A stretch of 64,000 bases of DNA from Microcoleus sp. (GCA_051652045.1 JBOFTL010000514.1:21899-85898); one strand, 5' to 3'. Shown: positions 26,510 to 62,398, counted from the first letter of the stretch. Numbers and translations are program-made. The notes: a model not told the origin generated them from the letters alone.

Positions 26510-26842
26510 TCTTGAAGGGGGTTCAAACCCCCGTGCCCGTTTTCCTCCACGCTCTGAAGAGACGTGGCTCCCAACGTTACCACGCTACCCTGTGGGGATT
26601 GGCGGGACATCACAAGGGGTGCGATCGCATATATGCGATCGCACCCTCTTTTGTTTGCTTGATTCTAAGCCGCGTCGTCAAACTCGATATCGACTTGAAT
26701 GCCTGCGCCAAAGGCATCGGCGAACAGGCGCTTGAACTGGGTCTTGCTGCGGGCAACGCGGAGAAGTCCGCCGACCTGTTGAACTTTCTGCGAGGCGCAT
26801 TCCCCCATCCTCGGTACAGGTGGGGGTTAGCCGATTCCGGGA

Positions 26843-50065: not shown

Positions 50066-50875
50066 CTACTCCAGTCCGATCGCGCCAGTCAAATTAGCAC
50101 CGCGCAAATTCGCGCCACGTAAATTAGCGCCATACAGATCAGCGTCACGTAAATTAGCGTCACGCAAATCTGCACCAATCAAATTAGCGCCATACAAATC
50201 AGCGCCATACAAGTCAGCCTTACGTAAATCTGCACCAATCAAATTAGCGCCAATCAAATTAGCGCCAATCAAATCAGCGCCATACAAGTCAGCCTTACGT
50301 AAATCTGCACGACGTAAATTAGCGCCAATCAGATCAGCGCCACGTAAATTAGCGCCATACAAGTCAGCATCACGTAAATTAGCACGACGTAAATTAGCGC
50401 CACTCAAATTAGCACGACGCAAATTCGCGCCACTTAAATCGGCACCAATCAAATCTGCGTCACTTAAATCGGCACCACTTAAATCGGCACCACTCAAATT
50501 AGCACTATACAAATCTGCACCAGTCAAACTAGCACCAGTCAAACTAGCACCATGCAAATCAAAAACAGAACCATCCGCAGACATCGATCGATAAAGAAGC
50601 TGAACTTGTGCGGCGGTCAATCCGCCCATAAAAAACAGTCTTTTCATCAAATCGTGATATACCCCAAACTCGTAGTCCACGCCACGGATTGCTTGAGAGA
50701 AGTCGGGATTAATCCCGACTTTAACCGCCGCAGATCCAAATAAACAATGTGTTGTCCCGCATGTTTTAAGCGCATCTGGTAAGACAGGATCTCCCCAGTC
50801 GCGCATTGAAAACCATGACGATGATTCATCATTTAATTGTCCAATCACCCAATCAGTCGTTGCTTTCGTAATCAT
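50066..50875 (-). CDS. pentapeptide-repeat protein
   Basis: Long A(D/N)Lxx array; N-terminal CGTTHCLFG domain. Confidence 0.92.
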   Translation of the reverse strand: MITKATTDWVIGQLNDESSSWFSMRDWGDPVLPDALKTCGTTHCLFGSAAVKVGINPDFSQAIRGVDYEFGVYHDLMKRLFFMGGLTAAQVQLLYRSMSADGSVFDLHGASLTGASLTGADLYSANLSGADLSGADLSDADLIGADLSGANLRRANLSGANLRRANLRDADLYGANLRGADLIGANLRRADLRKADLYGADLIGANLIGANLIGADLRKADLYGADLYGANLIGADLRDANLRDADLYGANLRGANLRGANLTGAIGLE

Positions 50876-50885
50876 GTTTGTTACC

Positions 50886-51158
50886 TCACTTGTTTACTTG
50901 TTGTTCTACTAAACGCGCGATCGCCCCTACTCCATTCGCCTCAACCCATTCCAGTGCCAGCGGGGACAAGGGCAACCAAGCTTTAATCCCGGTGGACTGC
51001 CTACCAACTTTTTTGTAGTAATGGCTTGGATGCTCTTTCGCCATCGCCTGGCTCGACAGGCAACGCCCGCAAGTTACCGCAGATGGATCAGTTGATGCAT
51101 CCCCGGATTTGCCGCAGGCAATGCGATCGCCTGCGAGGAGATGGATTTTAGTTTGCAT
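50886..51158 (-). CDS. small Zn-binding hypothetical protein
   Basis: H..ACG..VTCGRC. Confidence 0.55.
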   Translation of the reverse strand: MQTKIHLLAGDRIACGKSGDASTDPSAVTCGRCLSSQAMAKEHPSHYYKKVGRQSTGIKAWLPLSPLALEWVEANGVGAIARLVEQQVNK

Positions 51159-51732
51159 GATTTTGAATCCCCATCTGAAAAAGCGCTTCCAACGCTTGTG
51201 ACTCCTCAAACGTTTCAGTGCGATCGAACTCTAGGGTGGCAAAGCGATCGCCACCACTGTACAAGTGCAGTCCATCGCTATCTGTTTTGTGCTGGATTCC
51301 ACCACCATCTTTCGTCTCGCCATTGACAGAGAATTTTACGTGACCACTCCCATTAGGATTGAGCACGGCAATTAAAAAATGTCGGGGAGTTGTTTTAACA
51401 ATGACGCACTCGAATTGAGGCATCGCAGAAATCCGTCCGTTATAGATTTGCGCACGGGTTTGTTCGCCATTACTGGCAGTCATCCGCCCGTTCGTCCCTG
51501 TGAAGGTTTGCGGAGCTGCGATCGCCTCTCTCACTCGTAAATCTGCCCGACGACGAGCTTCAACGAGCTTCGCCTCATCAGCCTTCCGCTGTTCAACCTG
51601 TTCAACCTGCGCCGCCTTTTCGGCAGCTTCTTTTTTGTCAGTGGCGATCGAATCAACCACTGCGAAAACAATCCCAGACCCAGCTACCACCACCGAAACA
51701 AAAGCCGATATCGTTGCCTGCTTGCTCAACAT
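51148..51732 (-). CDS. membrane-anchored hypothetical protein
   Basis: GGAGG RBS; N-terminal TM; coiled coil. Confidence 0.6.
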   Translation of the reverse strand: MLSKQATISAFVSVVVAGSGIVFAVVDSIATDKKEAAEKAAQVEQVEQRKADEAKLVEARRRADLRVREAIAAPQTFTGTNGRMTASNGEQTRAQIYNGRISAMPQFECVIVKTTPRHFLIAVLNPNGSGHVKFSVNGETKDGGGIQHKTDSDGLHLYSGGDRFATLEFDRTETFEESQALEALFQMGIQNHAN

Positions 51733-51771
51733 GTCGTTACCTCCAATTGATTGATTGACACTTCTATATCT

Positions 51772-51820
51772 AAACAAAACATCCCCGGTTTGTCAACAAC
51801 AAACCGGGGATGTTTTGTTT
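51772..51820 (-). promoter_or_regulatory. 21-bp inverted repeat overlapping a TTGACA promoter (terminator/promoter)
   Basis: AAACAAAACATCCCCGGTTTG / CAAACCGGGGATGTTTTGTTT; TGTCAA at 51791. Confidence 0.6.
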
Positions 51821-52729: not shown

Positions 52730-53013
52730 TGTTTTTATCCCAGTAAAGATTATGGTTAGCACGCCGGCATGAGTTGAACTTGCCGGGGTGCGCCCCAAAA
52801 TAATACCACCGATCGCCCAAATCCCGGCAACTCTCGCCCGCCCGCAAATCCCTGTAGACGCTGCAAAAACAGGTAAAAATTATTGATTGGTCAAGAGAAA
52901 AGACTGGTATATTCGCGCAAATGTTTTGATGGCGGGTTGTCTACAATACTGGTAGGGGGTGCTATCTGATGTTTTTTGAGTTCATAAATACTAGTATTGG
53001 TCAACCAAAAAAG

Positions 53014-54138
53014 ATGGCATTTTCAGCGGAGCTATTAAAAACGTTTGAGGCGTTTGCGCAGACTATTGATCTGGGTGTTCTTTGCCTTGGCGATGTTGAG
53101 GGAAAACCGATCATTTTCTCATCAAAAATCAAAGATATTTTTGAATACTACGAGGCGGAACTGACCGGCAAATCATTGTCAGTGTTGCTGCATCCCGACC
53201 CTGAGAGCGAGGAGGGGCGCGCATTTACGGCACGACATGACAAGTTGATGGAATCGTTCAAGCTTGGTGAGTTTGCCTCTGCCTCACGCGGGATGGCGCA
53301 CGGGCGGGCGGTAAGTGGATACACGAAGGCGGGCGAAAAGGTCTCCATTACGATCGCAATCTCTTATCACAAAGGCGGCGGAGAAGAGACAGGCGGTATT
53401 TTTTTGGCGTTGGTGAAGCTTGGCGATCGCGCTATTGAGGAAAACACTGAATCAGTGCAGTCGGTCTTTACTGCGTTATTGCAGCCCGGTGTTGCGGTCG
53501 TTCGGAAAACGAAGGCTGCGATCGCCAAACAAATCATTGCACGGGGTGGGGTTGTCGGCTTTGTGGTTTGGGTCGCATCGTTAGTTACGCCGTTGGGGAC
53601 AAGCTTAAAAGCGTTTTTTACGGCATTTCAATGGCAGGCATCAACGGGACAGGAGGCGGATGTAGGAGTGTATGAAGTGATTGATAATGAGTTGCGCGGC
53701 GAACGCCTAAAGCAGATCCGCAACGCATTGCATCGAGTAAACGGCAAGGTTCGCGCGGTTGCTTACTATAGATTTGAAGAGTATGGGCTAGGAAGGCAGT
53801 TACGGTATGTTGCCGACTCGGGTACGATTGATAGTTTAGAGGCGTGGTTCTACGACACTACCGAAGAGAGGCTGATCCTCAGTGAAGACGCATTGCGATC
53901 GCTCAACCAAATGGATTGTATCTTGGTTAGTAATGGAGGGCATTACCCCAAAACGAACGAGAAGTTTAATGTTGTTATGTGCCCTACAATCCGCGTAGAG
54001 CCTGACGTTCAGAACAATGGGCTTAAGCGTTTTGTAGCTGTAGGTGTAGTAGCGATCGCAGTTGACAAAACTGTCGAACTAGAACCGATCGCCACCATTC
54101 TTTGGCGATATCTGCCGTCAGTCGAAAACTTGTACTAG
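53014..54138 (+). CDS. heme-PAS - TM - GAF-like membrane protein (T4-holin-like topology)
   Basis: PAS: IFEYYEAELTGKSLSVLL..RHDKLM..GRAVSGYTKAGE; TM GGVVGFVVWVASLV; C-terminal VAYYRF..VMCP..VGVVAI. Confidence 0.65.
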   Translation: MAFSAELLKTFEAFAQTIDLGVLCLGDVEGKPIIFSSKIKDIFEYYEAELTGKSLSVLLHPDPESEEGRAFTARHDKLMESFKLGEFASASRGMAHGRAVSGYTKAGEKVSITIAISYHKGGGEETGGIFLALVKLGDRAIEENTESVQSVFTALLQPGVAVVRKTKAAIAKQIIARGGVVGFVVWVASLVTPLGTSLKAFFTAFQWQASTGQEADVGVYEVIDNELRGERLKQIRNALHRVNGKVRAVAYYRFEEYGLGRQLRYVADSGTIDSLEAWFYDTTEERLILSEDALRSLNQMDCILVSNGGHYPKTNEKFNVVMCPTIRVEPDVQNNGLKRFVAVGVVAIAVDKTVELEPIATILWRYLPSVENLY

Positions 54139-54170
54139 AATTGCAGCAAAGCAAAGCACAGGAGTCTTTC

Positions 54171-54392
54171 ATGGCATCCGACTTAATTCGAGCATTAACA
54201 CCAGCGGCACTAGGAGTTATCGCCTGTGGGATGATGATTTTTGGAATGACATCCCGTGTTGATTCGAACAAATTCAACACGGCCTCAAACTTTGCCATCT
54301 TTTTGGCAGGCGGGGCAACCGGGGTGGCACAGGGCGGGCGATCGCAAACTCAGCAACGGCAGATGAGTGGAGAAGGAGGCGATCGCCCATGA
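54171..54392 (+). CDS. small two-TM protein (holin-like)
   Basis: 73 aa with two hydrophobic segments and a charged tail; AGGAG RBS. Confidence 0.5.
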   Translation: MASDLIRALTPAALGVIACGMMIFGMTSRVDSNKFNTASNFAIFLAGGATGVAQGGRSQTQQRQMSGEGGDRP

Positions 54393-54568
54393 TTTCCCCT
54401 GAAGCTTTCCGACTGCGGACAGAGCAAGAATTTGAATTGGCGAGGTTTGCGATCGCCTGCGCCGACTTATCCGATGGCGAATTGCAAGAATTGTTGTTGG
54501 ATACGGTGGCAAGATTGATGGATGCCGATAATCAAATCAGGAAGTTGATTTTGGGAGGGTTTCGATGA
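54389..54568 (+). CDS. nblA: NblA phycobilisome degradation adaptor
   Basis: 59 aa, not in the ORF track: MISPEAFRLRTEQEFELARF..LS..ELQELLL..LM..DNQIRKLI; AAGGAGG RBS; ATGA overlaps on both sides. Confidence 0.8.
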   Translation: MISPEAFRLRTEQEFELARFAIACADLSDGELQELLLDTVARLMDADNQIRKLILGGFR

Positions 54569-54987
54569 ATATCCGACACTGGACATGGACAGGACTCGGC
54601 TTCCGACGCGGCACAGTATACACCGCACTCGGCACTTATACTGAGGCGATCGCCCGAATCACTTGTGACAATCCCATCCACCGCAACGACCTGGCAGATC
54701 CAAAGCAATTCGCGTTGCATAGTCAAGACGCGATCGCCACCCCCGTAAGGATTCCGGTGCGATCGTATCAGGACGAGTACGGGTGGCATGTATTCCCTGT
54801 CGATCCAAAACTTGGTGATGTTTTTTGCGGGATGGGGCCCTCGAAAGAAGCCGCGATCGACAGTTTGCGGGAGGATATTAATGCCACAATTGCCGCGATC
54901 GCCCTATTTTTTCCGGGGCGATCCCCAGTGCGATATATTTTGGAATTGGAAGAAAAGGCGATCGCCCCATTGCAAAAATCGCTATAA
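54565..54987 (+). CDS. hypothetical protein (HicB-like C-terminal fold possible)
   Basis: P.LG..FCGMG.SKEAAI.SL pattern. Confidence 0.5.
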   Translation: MNIRHWTWTGLGFRRGTVYTALGTYTEAIARITCDNPIHRNDLADPKQFALHSQDAIATPVRIPVRSYQDEYGWHVFPVDPKLGDVFCGMGPSKEAAIDSLREDINATIAAIALFFPGRSPVRYILELEEKAIAPLQKSL

Positions 54988-55015
54988 TCTGCGTAGGCGT
55001 TAATTAGGATTTCCA

Positions 55016-55507
55016 GTGGCAGACCTCGGCGTTGTAATTTACGATGAGCCGCAAATATTAGCGACAATTGATGAGCAATTGCCGCCTAGTTACTATGGAA
55101 GCTTGGAAGATTATGTCGTCAATCTGATTCGCGCGAATCAGCCGTCAGCGGGGGCGGCAACTGAAACTGCCATATTAGGAACTGCATTGAGTGCTTTGAC
55201 GGTTGTAACAAAGAGTAGCGCCAATCAATTAATTCGGTGCAACCCGTCAACAGCGGGGCACATGGTTGGGGTTGCTGGTATCTTGCTGCAAGCTGGGCAG
55301 ATTGGAGATACGGTTTCGTATCAAAGCGCCGGGGAGCTTGTTGATTCTAGTTGGAATTGGACTCCAAGCAATCCCATTTTTGTTTCGCAAACAGGCGCGC
55401 TAACTCAAGTAGTGCCAGTAAACTATCCGCTAATTGCGATTGGATGGGCTATTACTAGCGATCGCATTAATGTTCAGGTTTTCCAACGAATAGTGAGGAC
55501 AAATTAA
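55016..55507 (+). CDS. virion accessory (head fibre/cement-like) protein
   Basis: WNWTPSNPIFVSQTGALTQ..IGWAIT. Confidence 0.6.
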   Translation: MADLGVVIYDEPQILATIDEQLPPSYYGSLEDYVVNLIRANQPSAGAATETAILGTALSALTVVTKSSANQLIRCNPSTAGHMVGVAGILLQAGQIGDTVSYQSAGELVDSSWNWTPSNPIFVSQTGALTQVVPVNYPLIAIGWAITSDRINVQVFQRIVRTN

Positions 55508-55508
55508 A

Positions 55509-56030
55509 ATGGGTCAACGTTTTCAAGCTTTAAATAGCTTAGGGCTAACAATTGAAGAAAAAGGTGCGGTCGATTCCGGCGATGTGCCGACAGAGGGTGC
55601 GCTCGCTGCTATTGATGGGACGACCAAAAAACTTGACATCTCACTGATGCCGTCAGGGCTTGGAGTTGAAACGATTACAGCGATCGCTTCTGAGGCTTTG
55701 ACGGCAGGTGATCTGGTCAACATCTTTGACAATAGCGGCAGCGCTGGGGTTCGCAAGGCTGATCGTTCCAATGGACGTAAAGCTGATGGATTTGTTAAGG
55801 CGAACGTTGCAAACGCAGGAAGTGCGACTATTTTTGTCGATAACGGAACTATTATTACAGGATTATCTGCCCTAACAATTGGCGCAACTTACTTTTTGGG
55901 AACAGCGGGGGCAGCCGTTACGACACTTCCCGCTGCTGCCTCTGGGCATTTGCTTCAACGGATTGGGAAAGCCACGTCGGCAACCTCTTTGATTTTTGAA
56001 AAACATGAAGAGATTACGCGAGTGAGCTAA
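55509..56030 (+). CDS. virion accessory (DUF2190-like) protein
   Basis: ASEALTAGDLV..KAD..ADGFV..GL..GATYFL..QRIGKA. Confidence 0.65.
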   Translation: MGQRFQALNSLGLTIEEKGAVDSGDVPTEGALAAIDGTTKKLDISLMPSGLGVETITAIASEALTAGDLVNIFDNSGSAGVRKADRSNGRKADGFVKANVANAGSATIFVDNGTIITGLSALTIGATYFLGTAGAAVTTLPAAASGHLLQRIGKATSATSLIFEKHEEITRVS

Positions 56031-56767
56031 TGGTAAGATTGTTGCGGGTAGACGAGAATGGAAATCAACAGGAGGTCGATATTGCGATCGCCCAACAAAA
56101 CTCGTATACCAACTATTGGGTCTACGAGAAATTTACAGGCGTATTCAACCTCAGTGCAACCACAGCATTGGGGGCACTAAGACTGTTTTCCACGGTATCG
56201 GGGACAGGTGCAAGTAACACTTCCGACCTTGCTAACAACTCTAATGAGTTTGGAGGGATTGTCGCCTCCACAGGAACAACCGCGACAGGTTATGCTGGGC
56301 TGCTTTCGTCAACAGGAACGAACTCGGCGCAGAATATACGATTAGCCAATAGCGGCGGGCGCACATTTCTTTACGAATTGGATGTTAACTTTCCGCTGAT
56401 CTCGACCGTGACAGAAGTCTATGGTTGTGTCTTGGGTTTTGCCAACAATGTAAACGCCCCCACCGATGGCGCGTACATCTCGATGGATACGACTGGAAAT
56501 TTGATTGGCTTCACTCGGAATAACAGCGCCCAGTCTGTCAGTGGATCGATCGCAACTATCGCGTCTGGTGCTACACGAACAAACATCAAAATAGAACTAA
56601 GCACAACTAGGGCGCGGTTCGTTGTTAACGATGGAACCCCTGTAGAAATGACGACAAACCTGCCTCTAGGTCGAACCTTTGGGTATTGCGCAAGTATCGT
56701 CAAAGGCGTGGGCTTGACCGCAAGAACTTTACGTCTGTATGGCATGGGTGTGGGGGATAGACCATGA
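56030..56767 (+). CDS. beta-sandwich (lectin-like) virion protein
   Basis: G/T/S-rich; ARFVVNDG. Confidence 0.55.
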   Translation: MVRLLRVDENGNQQEVDIAIAQQNSYTNYWVYEKFTGVFNLSATTALGALRLFSTVSGTGASNTSDLANNSNEFGGIVASTGTTATGYAGLLSSTGTNSAQNIRLANSGGRTFLYELDVNFPLISTVTEVYGCVLGFANNVNAPTDGAYISMDTTGNLIGFTRNNSAQSVSGSIATIASGATRTNIKIELSTTRARFVVNDGTPVEMTTNLPLGRTFGYCASIVKGVGLTARTLRLYGMGVGDRP

Positions 56768-56804
56768 TTCACACTATAATAAAATCAACCTTGCGCGATC
56801 GCCC

Positions 56805-57338
56805 ATGTGTAAAATGCTAGCATCACTAAAAAACTGGACAAAAGATATCAGTCTTGAACTAAGACGAATATTCAATCGGTTGGAGATGTTTGATGACAGA
56901 ACAGCGCGATCGCACAAGCAAATCAACGATCGCTTACTCGAATTGGAGAAAATCATGGGTATTCTTGCAGAAAAAATCAAACAATTAGTTGCAGTCGAGA
57001 CAGCGGAAGGTGCAGTAATCAAAGAAGAATCCGCTAAGTTAAAGGCTGCACTTGAAGCAGCAAACACAAAAATCTCTGCACTTGAAGCAGAGAATCCAGC
57101 GCTCAAAGCGGAAATTGCAGCCCTCAAAGCTGACCTGGCAGATGCAGACATTGCTGCAAATGCGATCGCAGACATCAACCCCACTCCTGTATCTGATGGT
57201 ATTGTTACAGAAGTTGTGGAGAACCCCGCGATCGAAACACCTGCGATCGTCGAGGATGCTCCTGCCGTTGCTCCTGAAGTGATTCAGGAAGTACCAGTAG
57301 TCGAAGCCGCTGTTGATGCGATCGTCGCCGCCGAATAA
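56805..57338 (+). CDS. coiled-coil protein with acidic tail
   Basis: Heptad repeats; followed by a terminator. Confidence 0.6.
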   Translation: MCKMLASLKNWTKDISLELRRIFNRLEMFDDRTARSHKQINDRLLELEKIMGILAEKIKQLVAVETAEGAVIKEESAKLKAALEAANTKISALEAENPALKAEIAALKADLADADIAANAIADINPTPVSDGIVTEVVENPAIETPAIVEDAPAVAPEVIQEVPVVEAAVDAIVAAE

Positions 57339-57365
57339 AGCTCACCTCTCCACTCTCTTCAGAGG

Positions 57366-57404
57366 AATTTCCCCATGGTTTCACACAGCCATGGGGAATT
57401 TTTT
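57366..57404 (+). terminator. intrinsic terminator
   Basis: TTCCCCATGG..CCATGGGGAA followed by a T-run. Confidence 0.7.
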
Positions 57405-57519
57405 GTGTTTGCAATTCCCGTGTTTTTGCCGAATACAGCGCGGACAAAAGCGGGCAATATAAAAAAGCGATCGCAGCAAAGGAGTTCCGCGATCGCTTCA
57501 TAAATTGAGGTAAACAAGC

Positions 57520-57792
57520 ATGAGATACTTGAGTGGATTTGTAGGAAGTGTAACACTGTTAATTGGTTGTGTCACGTTTGCGGGGGATGCGATCGCGGTT
57601 ACTTTCACGCCGCCCCGTGGCGATGCACCAAAAGAAACTGTGGGTGCTGGTTCGCGGATGTTTGATGATGAGCGGGGCAGTGGACGGATTAAGATTGATG
57701 CAAACGAGGATGCGCCGCGCCGTTGCCGTCGCCCCGGAGAAATTCGCCCTGACCTTCCCCGTTGTCCAGTAATCACTAGTCTGCCGGAGTAG
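57520..57792 (+). CDS. secreted peptide carrying ERGSGR (PatS/PatX/HetN-like motif)
   Basis: GAGG RBS; signal peptide ending A-I-A; FTPPRGDAPKETVGAGSR; ERGSGR at 57670-57687. Confidence 0.7.
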   Translation: MRYLSGFVGSVTLLIGCVTFAGDAIAVTFTPPRGDAPKETVGAGSRMFDDERGSGRIKIDANEDAPRRCRRPGEIRPDLPRCPVITSLPE

Positions 57793-57796
57793 TGCT

Positions 57797-58321
57797 ATGC
57801 TGGATTTTTCCCTGTTGAATCTGCCATTGCCGCAGACTGTGTTAGAGATTGAAGAACTACAGCGCATTGCCTATAGTGATGCGCTTACCGGATTGTTGAA
57901 TCGGCGATCGTTTGATTTGGTAATGCCGCGAGTCCCCCGCGGTCAAGTCCTGTTTGTGGATTTTGACCATTTGAAATTGCTCAACACAAAGTATGGGCAC
58001 TTAGTTGCTAATGCTTTATTGGGGCAAGTTGGCAGGGTTCTAATTGACCATTTGAAGCGATCGCAAGATACTGCCTTCCGCTTTGGTGGCGATGAACTTG
58101 CGGTGTTACTACCCGATGCATCAATTGATTACGCCAAACAATTGGCTGAATCTATCAGGCGTTGCGTTGAACACATCGAGTGTCCCGATGGTAGCCGCCC
58201 ATGTTCTGTTTCAATTGGCATTGCAACTATTAATGGTGATTGGGCGATCGCCTTTCAGCAGGCTAATCAAGCCATGTTCCTAGCAAAGGAACGCGGGCGG
58301 AATCAAGTTGCGATCGGTTGA
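57797..58321 (+). CDS. stand-alone GGDEF-domain protein (diguanylate cyclase family)
   Basis: DALTGLLNRR, FVDFD, YGH, RSQD I-site, RFGGDEL, SVSIG, AKERGRN. Confidence 0.92.
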   Translation: MLDFSLLNLPLPQTVLEIEELQRIAYSDALTGLLNRRSFDLVMPRVPRGQVLFVDFDHLKLLNTKYGHLVANALLGQVGRVLIDHLKRSQDTAFRFGGDELAVLLPDASIDYAKQLAESIRRCVEHIECPDGSRPCSVSIGIATINGDWAIAFQQANQAMFLAKERGRNQVAIG

Positions 58322-58322
58322 C

Positions 58323-58366
58323 ACAAAAAACAACCCCAGGTTGCGCAACCTGGGGTTGTTTTTTGT
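58323..58366. repeat. perfect 44-bp palindrome (probable bidirectional terminator)
   Basis: ACAAAAAACAACCCCAGGTTGC|GCAACCTGGGGTTGTTTTTTGT. Confidence 0.85.
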
Positions 58367-58374
58367 TCTAGTTC

Positions 58375-58812
58375 TCAACCGTACATTTCGTGAATATCGT
58401 CGCGGTTGAATTGGATGCCTTGTTGATGCTGATCCAAAGTCCATTCTCGATAATGCAAATTGACCTCGCCATAGGTCAAAAGATGGCGGATTTGACGGCT
58501 GACCCACAGGGCGAAACCGGGACTGCACCACTGGGCGAATTGGATAGCAATGTCAGGATGTGCGAACGTTCCACCACCTCGCCCTTCTTTCGTCCTGATA
58601 GGTGGAACTCCGTCATAGCTAGGGTCTTGGCTAAACTCCCTCATAAGTGAGGTAGTTTCTTTCAGTCGCATCCAGTTATCGACACGCTTGCCGAATGGCT
58701 TTGCAATGTCGTTTAAATTGCAATAAGCGCCCGACCGATAGAATTCAACGCTGCCTAATTGATGAAACGCGATCGCATGTCGATCTTTGCCTGATAAACT
58801 TGTCATAGCCAT
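58375..58812 (-). CDS. KilA-N domain protein
   Basis: YCNLNDIAKPFGKRVDNW..GGGTFAHPDIAIQFAQWCSPGF. Confidence 0.9.
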   Translation of the reverse strand: MAMTSLSGKDRHAIAFHQLGSVEFYRSGAYCNLNDIAKPFGKRVDNWMRLKETTSLMREFSQDPSYDGVPPIRTKEGRGGGTFAHPDIAIQFAQWCSPGFALWVSRQIRHLLTYGEVNLHYREWTLDQHQQGIQFNRDDIHEMYG

Positions 58813-58937
58813 TTTGTTTCTCCAAGAAGAAATAGAGTGGTCAGGACTGACGGCTTGGTCAAAAAGCCGTCAGTCTGTCCAAACATTCTACCAGCGATCG
58901 CCCAAAATTCGGCAATACCACTGTTGCTTCAGATATC

Positions 58938-59789
58938 ATGGGGGTGTTGAATCGAGCACCCGTTATGCCTTATATCAGCGCGATCGCGTCCCCGTTTGCT
59001 AGTTTAAAACTGCGTCCTGTTGAGAATGCCCATCTAAAAGAAGGGGAGCTTATCAAAGTCCCCAAGGGGCAAAAGCTGGCTGTAACTTTTCCCTACAGTG
59101 ATTCCGATAAGCCATTGCAAGCCGTTCGATTAGTTGGCGCTGCCTCTAATCTAGGATTGAAGGCGGGCGATGTTTTGTATGCCTTCACCAAGGAATGGCA
59201 CGTCAATGATGCGCCCTGGTCACTAGTGAAGCCCAAAAGCAAATCCAGTAACCCTGTCTCCGCATTATCGAAATGGTTGGGGCTGGGCAAGAAGGAATAC
59301 AAGCCTGTCATGCAGCGCGGGGATTATCATCTAGTTGTAGTTGACGATGAGTCTTTGCCCACATCAACAATGGAGTGTTTTGACCATAATGGCGATCGCC
59401 TTTGGACGCGCAAATGTCTTGCCCGTGGACAGGTCGCAGACTACGGGCTTTATAGTGGTGATACTCCAGTCGGGCTGTACTATCTAGGGGAACTATGGGA
59501 AGCTGCTAGTGATGATGTGGCGACATGCAAACCCTACGGCATCCATTGCTTCGATATGGTTTCCGTCGTTGATGGCGAGGACGCAGTGGGTCGCGCGGGG
59601 ATTTGTCTCCATGGTGGCGGCTCTGCCCTTGGGTATCCTGGTTGCATTGAAGAGTATCAAGAACTTGTTCCAACTTTTGGGTGCGTCAGAATGCATACTA
59701 TCGATCTGCGTGAGACTATTTATCCTATCTGGAAAGAATGCGATCGCAATGGCAAAAAAGTCTGGATGTCCGTCTATCAGCTTACTTGA
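58938..59789 (+). CDS. YkuD/L,D-transpeptidase-family cell-wall enzyme with N-terminal cell-wall-binding-like domain
   Basis: GDTPVGLY, ICLHGGG, TFGCVRMH. Confidence 0.8.
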   Translation: MGVLNRAPVMPYISAIASPFASLKLRPVENAHLKEGELIKVPKGQKLAVTFPYSDSDKPLQAVRLVGAASNLGLKAGDVLYAFTKEWHVNDAPWSLVKPKSKSSNPVSALSKWLGLGKKEYKPVMQRGDYHLVVVDDESLPTSTMECFDHNGDRLWTRKCLARGQVADYGLYSGDTPVGLYYLGELWEAASDDVATCKPYGIHCFDMVSVVDGEDAVGRAGICLHGGGSALGYPGCIEEYQELVPTFGCVRMHTIDLRETIYPIWKECDRNGKKVWMSVYQLT

Positions 59790-59798
59790 GGCTGCCCC

Positions 59799-60248
59799 AT
59801 GAATATGAAAACATCACAGCGCGGTATCAACCTAATCAAAGAGTTTGAAGGGTGCGAACTTGAATCCTATCTATGTTCCGCCAATGTTCCGACCATTGGG
59901 TACGGGCACACTGCATCGGTTAAGGTTGGCGATCGCATCACTCAAGACAAGGCGGAACAACTACTGCGGGAAGACTTAGCTGAGTTCGAGGCTGCCGTCA
60001 ATGGCATGGTGGAAGTCCCCATCACACAATGCCAATTTGATGCCCTTGTCGCGTTCGCCTTCAATGTTGGCATCAGTGGCCTTGGGTCTTCCACTGCACT
60101 CAATCGACTGAACCAAGGCAAACATGCGGCGGCGGCGGATGCCCTACTGTGGTGGAACAAGGTCGATGGCGTTGTGGTCGATGGCTTAACGCGGCGGCGG
60201 CAGGCAGAACGACGGTTGTTTTACGGGCAGGCTTTTCTGGGTCAGTGA
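59799..60248 (+). CDS. GH24 lysozyme (endolysin)
   Basis: IKEFEG..Y.C.ANVPTIGYGHT, QFDALVAFAFNVG, GLTRRRQAE. Confidence 0.93.
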   Translation: MNMKTSQRGINLIKEFEGCELESYLCSANVPTIGYGHTASVKVGDRITQDKAEQLLREDLAEFEAAVNGMVEVPITQCQFDALVAFAFNVGISGLGSSTALNRLNQGKHAAAADALLWWNKVDGVVVDGLTRRRQAERRLFYGQAFLGQ

Positions 60249-60640: not shown

Positions 60641-61048
60641 CTACCTTTTATGGTGCGGGTCGTTAATGTATCGCTCTATTGTATCGGCTGGAACGTTGCC
60701 AGCAGTAGAAAAGAAATAGCTATTAGTCCACAGTGAAGGCAATCGGGTTAAATGCGGAAACTCCTTCCTAAGCAAATACGCAGATCTGCCCTTAAACGCT
60801 TTGACAACTTGATTGATAGCATCTGTTGGGTGAATTTCAACAAAAAGATGCAAGTGGTCAGGCGCAATCTCTAAAGCTCGAATGTTCCAATTTCGTTCCT
60901 TTGCAATCTCGCCACAAATTTGAAACAACCTATCTCTGACCTCACCAATTAGCACGGGCTTACGTCGTTTTGGAATCCAAACCAAGTGAACCACACAAAG
61001 CCCTACAGAATGATTGTAATGTCGATACTCGTAAGAATTTTTTCTCAT
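60641..61048 (-). CDS. tnpA: TnpA Y1 HUH transposase
   Basis: HLVWIPKRR, PDHLHL, IERYI. Confidence 0.95.
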   Translation of the reverse strand: MRKNSYEYRHYNHSVGLCVVHLVWIPKRRKPVLIGEVRDRLFQICGEIAKERNWNIRALEIAPDHLHLFVEIHPTDAINQVVKAFKGRSAYLLRKEFPHLTRLPSLWTNSYFFSTAGNVPADTIERYINDPHHKR

Positions 61049-61117
61049 TCAGTTTGTCGTTCTTTCAGAATAATCTACAAATCTATTGTATAATACTAAG
61101 AGAGAACAACAGAGGAG

Positions 61118-62398
61118 GTGGTTGAATTGTTTGGCTGTCAGCAAGACCTAATTAAGGCAGACAAAGATACTCTGGCAATTATTGAGTATCTTTGTCACGA
61201 ATCGAATGACTTGTTTAATTGTGCGGTCTACTATGGTCGTCAAATTTGGTTTAAGACGGGCAGAGTCGTTACGGGGTATGACTTGGCGGTTGAGATGAAA
61301 ACTAATCGTCATTTCAACGCTGGGTATGCCTCTGCAATGCAGCAAACTTGTCTGAATGTTGGTGAAGCGTTTCAATCCTTTAAGAAGCTTCGCAGCCAAG
61401 TCTTAAAAGGAAAACTAGAACAATTTCCTAGAGTGCCGGGATACCGCAAGCCTAACGGATTGTTCACTGTCACTTATCCTAAGAAATGGTTGAAGCTCAA
61501 AGATGGATCAATCCGTTTCCCGTTGGGCAATCAAGTTAAAGCTTGGTTTGGAATCACTGACTTTTATTTGCCAATGCCAGTCAATTTAAGATGGGAAGAT
61601 ATCAAGGAGATTCGCATTCTTCCCCGCAATGGTGCGTTCTATGCTGAGTTTGTCTATCTAGTGAAGACACAGGCGCAATCTTTAGATCCGAGCAAAGCTC
61701 TAGGAATTGACCCCGGTTTGAATAACTGGTTGACCTGCGTGAGTAACGTAGGCACGGGCTTCATTGTTGACGGCAAGGAATTGAAGGCTTTGAATCAGTG
61801 GTACAACAAGCAACTGTCAACGATGAAGGACGGAAAGCCTCAAGGATTCTGGTCTAGAACCTTGGCGCAAATCACTGAGAAGCGGAATCGTCAGATGCGG
61901 GACGCAGTGAATAAAGCAGCCAGGATTGTGATTAATCATTGCCTTGAAAATGGCATTGGGTTAATCGTATTCGGGTGGAACAAAGGGCAGAAAAATTTGA
62001 TTAATCTCGGCGCAAAGACAAATCAAAAATTTGTGTCTGTGCCGACTGCCAGATTGAAGAAACGGATTGAACAACTGTGTGAGCAATACGGGATTCAGTT
62101 TGAGGAAACAGAGGAATCTTATACCTCAAAAGCAAGTTTTCTTGATAATGACGAGCTACCCAAATTCGGCGAAAAACCTGAACAGTGGCAGTCCAGTGGG
62201 AAGCGTGTAAAACGAGGTTTGTTCCGCACAGCAACGTTCGGCTATGTTAATGCAGATTGCAACGGAGCCGCGAATATTCTTCGCAAAGTAAAGGGAAAGT
62301 TCAAATTAGATTTGAGCGGACTTATTAGAGGTGTCTTGACAGCACCCAAGAGAATCAGGCTATGGTCTGAGGATCGGCAAGAATCCCCGTCTCTTTAG
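61118..62398 (+). CDS. tnpB: TnpB (rearranged RuvC-II type)
   Basis: GIDPG, VFGWN, EESYTSK, NADCNGA. Confidence 0.9.
   Translation: MVELFGCQQDLIKADKDTLAIIEYLCHESNDLFNCAVYYGRQIWFKTGRVVTGYDLAVEMKTNRHFNAGYASAMQQTCLNVGEAFQSFKKLRSQVLKGKLEQFPRVPGYRKPNGLFTVTYPKKWLKLKDGSIRFPLGNQVKAWFGITDFYLPMPVNLRWEDIKEIRILPRNGAFYAEFVYLVKTQAQSLDPSKALGIDPGLNNWLTCVSNVGTGFIVDGKELKALNQWYNKQLSTMKDGKPQGFWSRTLAQITEKRNRQMRDAVNKAARIVINHCLENGIGLIVFGWNKGQKNLINLGAKTNQKFVSVPTARLKKRIEQLCEQYGIQFEETEESYTSKASFLDNDELPKFGEKPEQWQSSGKRVKRGLFRTATFGYVNADCNGAANILRKVKGKFKLDLSGLIRGVLTAPKRIRLWSEDRQESPSL

Follow-up and report, generated by a model that had tools for sequence, protein, structure and literature searches.

Phages are known to collect accessory genes, termed morons or auxiliary genes, close to those for lysis, a moron being an extra gene with its own signals placed between conserved phage genes, as in the morons of lambdoid phages. 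Amongst the viruses of cyanobacteria, small genes of the NblA family are carried by Ma-LMM01 of Microcystis, Phormidium phage MIS-PhV1A, Microcoleus prophages and marine cyanophages. Phages that infect filamentous cyanobacteria have been reported to carry NblA (bioRxiv 10.1101/2023.04.12.536658), and NblA affects host photosynthesis (PMC12695635). Here we describe a 7-kb stretch of DNA (52969-60248) in which an nblA gene lies amongst lysis genes and other accessory genes. The stretch is part of a 64-kb window, positions 21899-85898 of contig C514 (JBOFTL010000514.1), which was assigned to a metagenome-assembled genome (MAG) named Microcoleus sp. (GCA_051652045.1, referred to below as the bin); all positions are counted within this window unless another contig is named.

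The other systems with which the locus can be compared are the lysis system of phage T4 (the class III holin T with the antiholins RI and RIII), the multi-domain endolysins related to that of Synechococcus phage S-CBS4, and the HetR inhibitors PatS, PatX and HetN. PatX is exported, and processing turns it into a hexapeptide which binds HetR (PMC12756182), and the part that hetR and patX play in non-heterocystous filaments is still unknown (PMC11298460). Our reading, to which we give a probability of about 0.6, is that the stretch is the lysis/accessory arm of a circular cyanophage of ~89.4 kb and a mosaic of at least four units, and not one conserved module for the sensing and signalling that the first-pass annotation had proposed.

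Proposed transcription units and relatives

Seven genes had been named in the stretch at the outset (heme-PAS membrane protein, small holin-like gene, nblA, a gene for a peptide with the motif ERGSGR, GGDEF gene, YkuD-like gene and lysozyme gene), and all seven exist at the places given and on the + strand. The accompanying picture of host modulators interleaved with lysis genes stands as far as these seven go but omits five phage-typical or unmatched + strand genes (54565-57338, 2.8 kb), a KilA-N gene and two terminators. The complete layout comprises 12 genes on the + strand and one on the minus strand (lengths in amino acids, aa):

52969-54138, + strand: 389-aa membrane protein with a FixL-like PAS domain, one transmembrane (TM) segment and a GAF-like C-terminal domain
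54171-54392, + strand: 73-aa small membrane protein (alternative TTG start at 54102)
54389-54568, + strand: nblA, putative phycobilisome-degradation adaptor, 59 aa (PF04485, 31 bits against a cut-off of 25)
54565-54987, + strand: 140-aa protein g140, with a ribosome-binding site, the best codon score in its frame and a start that overlaps the end of nblA
55016-55507, + strand: g163, 163 aa (phrog_4368, E 4e-18)
55509-56030, + strand: g173, 173 aa (phrog_4368, E 7e-15)
56030-56767, + strand: g245, 245 aa, phage-typical with an SO2946-like lead (Atlas look-alikes are viral clusters scoring 0.97-0.98)
56739-57338, + strand: g199, 199 aa, coiled-coil with an acidic Ala/Val/Pro-rich tail (weak coiled-coil or scaffold-type matches only)
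57369-57398, + strand: intrinsic terminator, 12-bp stem and T-run (-25.1 kcal/mol, z -5.6)
57520-57792, + strand: 90-aa open reading frame (ORF) with ERGSGR at 57670-57687 (residues 51-56)
57797-58321, + strand: stand-alone GGDEF protein, 174 aa (PF00990, E 1.1e-28, 100.5 bits against a cut-off of 23.8)
58323-58366, both strands: 44-bp palindrome separating the GGDEF and KilA-N genes, bidirectional intrinsic terminator
58375-58812, minus strand: KilA-N domain protein (PF04383, E 1e-19)
58938-59789, + strand: 283-aa YkuD-like protein, with a C-terminal YkuD-type L,D-peptidase domain recognised through its homologues
59799-60248, + strand: GH24 phage lysozyme, putative endolysin (PF00959, E 6.8e-47, profile positions 1-125 of 125)

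Both hairpins fold more stably than every shuffled control, the palindrome reaching -32 kcal/mol on either strand (z -6.7 and -8.1). Because these two strong terminators and the minus-strand KilA-N gene interrupt the stretch, its predicted organisation is one of at least four transcription units and not a single operon. Unit 1 (52969-57338) would begin in a divergent intergenic region and stop at the first terminator, carrying in order the PAS-holin-like gene, the small membrane gene, nblA, the 140-aa gene and four fibre-like or coiled-coil genes of phage type. Unit 2 (57520-58321) would consist of the ERGSGR ORF and the GGDEF gene, a moron-like cassette flanked by terminators, unit 3 of the KilA-N gene on the minus strand, and unit 4 of the YkuD-type peptidase and the GH24 muramidase, which would form a two-enzyme endolysin set.

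The second line of evidence comes from related loci, four sets of which were read; they provide two to four distant relatives, covered over parts of their contigs. On the nearest of these, a 60-kb contig (L006), a PAS-like gene is followed by a 78-aa gene with two TM segments in the position of the 73-aa gene and by a 126-aa gene that occupies the same position as g163 and whose N-terminus resembles that of g163 by eye. Genes of 480, 268, 88 and 74 aa come next and then a YkuD-like gene (62% identical), and the locus is without nblA, GGDEF, lysozyme or an ORF with the motif RG[ST]GR. On a 72-kb contig (L007, L096) the PAS-like gene lies 6 kb from an nblA gene on the opposite strand and ~37 kb from a YkuD-like gene, and on L095 a YkuD-like gene is found just upstream of the terminase gene. 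The nblA genes of the relatives are of a different type from the copy described here, and no RG[ST]GR ORF was found near the homologous GGDEF genes.

As judged from sequence, the conserved backbone is made up of the PAS-holin-like, small membrane, fibre-like and YkuD-like genes, which are shared with one distant relative (L006). The nblA gene, the ERGSGR/GGDEF cassette, the KilA-N gene and the lysozyme gene would be separate, independently gained additions, a proposal that we include in the probability given above for the mosaic as a whole. Like the morons of lambdoid phages, the ERGSGR/GGDEF pair lies between strong intrinsic terminators and has no counterpart at that position in L006; it differs from them in being a two-gene cassette and in the cyanobacterial host. 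The proposal of a single module does not fit these results: the stretch is broken up by the terminators and the minus-strand gene, the ERGSGR ORF has no homologue, and the relatives that were read have neither the set of genes nor their order. The expected synteny was likewise not seen, with L006 keeping only the PAS-holin-like, two-TM, g163-like and YkuD-like genes and the 72-kb relative having its genes dispersed.

Several points weigh on the other side. The relatives are few and distant and their contigs were partly read, so that accessory genes could lie elsewhere on them. A promoter scan for units 1, 2 and 4 gave sites no more numerous than in shuffled sequences, 12 of the 13 genes are on one strand, which is compatible with common late expression, and intrinsic terminators can leak.

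The ERGSGR/GGDEF cassette

The ERGSGR ORF starts 180 nucleotides (nt) past the end of the g199 gene and ~120 nt past the 57369-57398 hairpin, and the intervening sequence (57399-57519) contains no consensus promoter. No homologue was found for the ORF, but its frame has the best codon score of the six, close to that of the KilA-N gene, and it is preceded by the ribosome-binding site GAGG. Hydropathy analysis reveals a hydrophobic, signal-like segment at residues 4-22, in which two modes of processing are possible, at an A-I-A26 cleavage site or at a lipobox (LIGC17, residues 14-17).

Within the bin, whose six-frame translation amounts to 15.7 million residues, RG[ST]GR occurs 40 times and ERGSGR twice, so that a phage proteome of the size encoded by C514 would be expected to hold ~0.07 RG[ST]GR and well under 0.01 ERGSGR. 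The second ERGSGR is in a 20-aa PatS-like ORF on contig C843, four residues before its end. The bin also encodes a 76-aa PatX-like ORF (C882, L008 481-711) with a signal-like N-terminus and the motif HRGSGR, ~630 bp upstream of hetR, the classic patX position.

The resemblance to PatS, PatX and HetN lies in the exact PatS6 hexapeptide and in the N-terminal signal-like segment, as in PatX. Against this, the phage gene is an orphan and is not beside hetR, its motif is in mid-protein with a 34-aa tail after it, and the DIF1 motif TCCGGA is absent from the 180 nt upstream. The lipobox LIGC17 and a Pro-rich mature part with two Cys residues, as in small phage lipoproteins, also speak against mimicry of these inhibitors. 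On this evidence we regard the ERGSGR protein as a candidate mimic of a HetR inhibitor, at odds that fall a little short of even.

The host assignment bears on what such a mimic might do. The HetR protein of the bin is 88-92% identical to the HetR of records named Microcoleus, the single best match (94%) being to a MAG labelled Richelia sp. CSU_2_1, and by this comparison the bin appears to be Microcoleus-like. Microcoleus is filamentous and without heterocysts. The idea in the first-pass annotation that differentiation is affected is accordingly recast here as HetR/PatX biology: ERGSGR is plausible as a ligand for HetR, but a Microcoleus-like bin would make no heterocysts.

Two kb to the left of the cluster, at 50066-50875 on the minus strand, lies a gene for a 269-aa pentapeptide-repeat protein. 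Its best match amongst natural proteins in the PDB is All3740 (E 1e-32), a score that the regularity of the repeats may explain. All3740 is HetL, which shields HetR from PatS.

The second gene of the cassette begins 4 nt after the end of the ERGSGR ORF and encodes a GGDEF protein with the motif GGDEL and an RSQD I-site. It belongs to a subfamily of short proteins (176-201 aa), 50-56% identical in alignment, in which GGDE[LM], RxxD and the metal-binding Asp are invariant and a KxxGRN-type motif is kept. At residue 72, after GHxxA, four of the six members have Asn and two have Asp; this residue may be the equivalent of PleD D344, the guanine-specifying Asp. Three contigs that carry members of the subfamily, each at an unrelated location (L097 10001-10543, L098 10001-10606 and L099 27-569), look phage-like: one, of 89 kb, has an integrase, a contractile-tail tube and ThyX, another is a 13-kb fragment with nblA 8.8 kb from the GGDEF gene, and in the third, of 59 kb, the GGDEF gene lies amid small early-type genes. 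As GGDEF domains are present in 126 phage records, a phage-borne GGDEF protein is not new in itself. It is plausible that the protein is a cyclase and would make a cyclic dinucleotide. A conserved GGDEF partner, suggested by a likeness between g199 and an Ala-rich protein beside the L097 GGDEF gene, was dropped since the two are alike in composition only (E 64).

Of the alternative explanations, the one that survives best agrees with the mosaic reading on layout and differs on function. It holds that nblA is the sole true host modulator, that the ERGSGR ORF encodes an o-spanin-like or superinfection-exclusion lipoprotein with a chance motif, and that the GGDEF protein is degenerate or produces another nucleotide. 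The lipobox-like LIGC, the Pro-rich mature part and the two further Cys residues are what a lipoprotein would have, and the orphan status of the ORF, the want of any RG[ST]GR ORF beside homologous GGDEF genes and the 40 occurrences of RG[ST]GR in the bin (~0.07 expected per proteome of C514 size) are all consistent with a chance motif, as is GGDEL, in place of GGDEF or GGEEF, with Asn where two of the six members have Asp, with a degenerate enzyme. Yet the exact hexapeptide is found just twice in 15.7 million residues, the other copy being in the PatS-like 20-aa ORF, the order of signal-like segment and motif is that of the PatX-like gene beside hetR, no i-spanin partner adjoins the ERGSGR ORF, and the GGDE, metal-binding Asp and RxxD residues are invariant in the subfamily. 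We consider this explanation unlikely on balance, though a serious contender.

Lysis genes, nblA and their neighbours

The real start of the 389-aa protein may be M16, at 53014. Two homologues only (45% and 40% identical) were found for it amongst 5.8 billion proteins, both on long metagenome contigs, and tblastn returned no match from 50,697 phage records. When the three homologous sequences are searched as a profile, FixL heme-PAS chains come at the top (E 1.4e-6 to 2e-4), followed by E. coli DosP; Pfam PAS matches of the family are sub-threshold only. An RHD triplet is invariant in all three PAS sequences and aligns with the RSRHD motif of FixL, which contains the proximal heme histidine. 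The N-terminal part is thus predicted to be a FixL/DosP-type heme-PAS domain that would bind heme and switch with O2. The single TM segment (residues 189-207) has a K/R-rich N-flank, and the PAS domain should therefore be cytoplasmic.

For the remainder of the protein we turned to structure prediction. AlphaFold 2 (AF2) with the three-sequence alignment gave a model usable for residues 243-389 only (pLDDT 62-85; single-sequence AF2 pLDDT 36). The modelled domain has a GAF-like fold, with Z about 10 to many GAF domains, and also aligns to the T4 holin T periplasmic domain (6pxe_T), with Z 8.6 and a root-mean-square deviation of 4.5 over 129 aligned residues. BFVD contains phage proteins of 190-225 aa that match the TM segment together with this domain (E 1e-4 to 2e-3 for the holin-annotated ones), including 'Holin [Proteus phage phiP4-3]' (E 1e-4), 'Class III holin [Proteus phage Stubb]' and 'T holin lysis mediator [Serratia phage PS2]', and an Atlas language-model search returned viral clusters, with Phage_holin_T making up 12% of one and GAF 44% of another.

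In common with T4 holin T, the protein would have one TM helix, its N-terminus inside and a large periplasmic alpha/beta domain, and the lysozyme encoded further along the stretch, like that of T4, would be cytoplasmic and without a signal sequence and so require such a hole-former. Where T has a short cytoplasmic N-terminus, the present protein has a FixL-like PAS domain of ~170 aa, and, unlike in T4, no RI/RIII antiholin homologue was identified here. Two further points count against a holin: none of the three homologues matches Phage_holin_T (PF11031) in Pfam even at E 10, and folds of the GAF-like type abound, 65 chains reaching Z 8 or more. The assignment is one of fold and architecture. 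A T4-type (class III) holin with a built-in cytoplasmic sensor is therefore a possible reading of the model, with the odds leaning against it. The first-pass annotation's heme-PAS membrane protein is borne out by the profile match, the aligned RHD and the single TM segment, to which the holin-shaped C-terminal part is now added.

The neighbouring 73-aa protein, whose gene has the ribosome-binding site AGGAG, has two hydrophobic segments, the one strong and the other weaker, together with a charged tail, and gave no match in family and PHROG searches. By architecture only it is a candidate class II holin or holin partner. Of the other roles assigned at the outset, those of nblA, the GGDEF gene and the GH24 lysozyme are upheld by family searches and that of the YkuD-like gene via homologues; that of the small holin-like gene stays at the level of architecture.

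The 283-aa YkuD-like protein has no Pfam match of its own at E 0.1, but a HMMER search identified 122 representative homologues of its C-terminal 160 residues, and 40 of the 48 that were aligned match YkuD (PF03734; best E 4e-10). H225, T246, G248, C249 and R251, the catalytic H...(S/T)xGCxR motif, are invariant across the 48 sequences. The domain is fused in its homologues to Phage_lysozyme (six cases) and to glucosaminidase, tail lysozyme and GH19 (one each), and the same domain (40% identity) sits within the annotated endolysin of S-CBS4. The protein is probably a peptidoglycan L,D-peptidase and the endolysin partner of the adjacent muramidase, a lysis enzyme and not a host modulator. The likeness to S-CBS4 and related multi-domain endolysins, in which the domain is joined to GH24, GH19 or glucosaminidase, has its limits: peptidase and muramidase are encoded here by separate, adjoining genes, and at its N-terminus the peptidase carries an additional domain of 120 aa. 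The lysozyme itself has no TM, signal or signal-arrest-release (SAR) segment.

In the divergent region between the KilA-N and YkuD-like genes, a 12-bp inverted repeat (GACTGACGGCTT...AAGCCGTCAGTC, 58835-58870) may be an operator or a hairpin. To the left of the cluster, a minus-strand gene (51148-51777) encodes a 209-aa protein with an N-terminal TM segment and then a highly charged helical stretch, an i-spanin-like topology on the opposite strand.

The nblA gene has the ribosome-binding site GAAGGAGG and overlaps each neighbouring gene by 4 bases (ATGA), giving 4-base overlaps with ribosome-binding sites at both junctions in the series small membrane gene, nblA, g140. Its product is 32-40% identical to the NblA copies in the bin, where a family search of the genome itself also recovers the phage copy, and tblastn against the 50,697 phage records gave no match. 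It shares with the cyanophage nblA genes listed above its small size, its family and its place on a cyanobacterial virus, and departs from them in being divergent and in overlapping both neighbours in a run headed by a holin-like gene. Acting as a predicted phycobiliprotein/ClpC adaptor, NblA would plausibly affect light harvesting. Of the genes behind it, g140 has no Pfam, PHROG or phage match, tblastn against the phage records included; g163 and g173, which match the same region of phrog_4368, are phage-typical and possibly fibre or decoration proteins; and g245, which resembles hypothetical proteins that are common in viruses, has a weak PDB match to 2a5z.

If the more venturesome predictions are combined, a heme-PAS-gated T4-type holin would tie the timing of lysis to O2 or redox, the cassette would export ERGSGR along with a cyclic-dinucleotide synthase and so reprogramme HetR in neighbouring cells of the filament, and the HetL-like protein might shield the infected cell. 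As a whole this combination is a long shot. More doubtful again is the co-regulated module, in which sensing of O2 or redox would fall to the heme-PAS protein, and NblA, the ERGSGR peptide and the GGDEF protein would come into play jointly near lysis. The named genes are, it is true, all co-oriented, nblA overlaps both neighbours behind the PAS-holin-like gene, and the two genes of the cassette are 4 nt apart; NblA and GGDEF are also together on L099, as are PAS-like, nblA and YkuD-like genes on the 72-kb contig. However, the proposed module is broken by two strong terminators and by a gene on the minus strand, no relative that was read has the set or the order, their nblA being of another type and located elsewhere, and the PAS protein lacks an output domain for signalling to other genes. 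On the mosaic reading, each accessory gene would most likely act on the host separately: NblA would strip phycobilisomes, the GGDEF protein would raise the level of a cyclic dinucleotide, and the ERGSGR protein would be either a mimic of a HetR inhibitor or an ordinary small lipoprotein.

The circular element and its host

At 89,575 bp, C514 is the longest contig in a MAG of 1,365 contigs (median 4.6 kb), and its termini share an exact 139-bp repeat, giving a circle of ~89.4 kb. It encodes the packaging and head proteins TerL, portal and prohead protease, a prim-pol/helicase and a superfamily 2 (SF2) helicase with a DnaJ domain for replication and, beyond the window, a tape-measure protein and a GpJ-like tail protein. 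The tape-measure gene (1812 aa) and the GpJ-like gene (contig positions 7833-15953) are on the opposite side of the circle from the head genes, and between tail and head genes lie the accessory/lysis arm and several insertion sequence (IS) elements. C514 has several elements of the IS200/IS605 family, one of which, inserted right after the lysozyme gene, forms the right edge of the 7-kb region:

60641-62398, TnpA on the minus strand and TnpB on the + strand: IS200/IS605 element (PF01797; PF01385/PF07282)

There is no host flank on C514, and a non-exhaustive scan of its ORFs found no integrase. The element is a phage genome or phage-plasmid; the contig circularises, and the prophage status that had been assumed is unsupported. 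That this DNA belongs to the host or to a plasmid island, with chromosomal nblA and GGDEF genes, as its binning with a cyanobacterial MAG and the host-type nature of these two families might suggest, is highly improbable given that the contig is circular and surrounds the stretch with genes for virions, packaging and replication, that the closest homologues of the GGDEF and YkuD-like genes are on phage-like contigs, and that its base composition is unlike that of the bin (guanine-plus-cytosine (GC) content 48.2% against 45.2%; HIP1 octamer, GCGATCGC, 2.94 per kb against 0.67 per kb).

These same differences in HIP1 and GC from the remaining MAG make the membership of C514 in the bin doubtful, and the link from phage to bin appears weak. 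IS copies gave no host link, the best identity being 74% across 400 genomes of the order. C514 and the bin share only matches of 30-35 nt resembling IS ends or RNA, with no CRISPR match and no near-identical IS copy between them. One such match, at 26779-26808, is a perfect 30-nt match to bin contig C286 just upstream of a tRNA-like sequence, and has the look of an RNA or end element associated with IS605 and not of a CRISPR spacer. At the DNA level, no relatives were found in the 50,697 phage records or in 60 related genomes, and searches of viral and metagenome contig collections with a major-capsid candidate and the PAS-family alignment found none either.

The layout of the stretch is thus of an ordinary, known kind, and it is the content that, amongst viruses of filamentous cyanobacteria, stands out as unusual: a holin-shaped membrane module to which a FixL-like PAS domain is attached, and a terminator-bracketed pair of an ERGSGR ORF and a short, phage-type GGDEF gene. 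The negative result on the module matters in that these genes merit study one by one, not as an operon-like unit. If the predictions made for them are true, they would offer direct handles on the coupling of cyanophage lysis to light and oxygen and on HetR/PatX signalling in non-heterocystous filaments.

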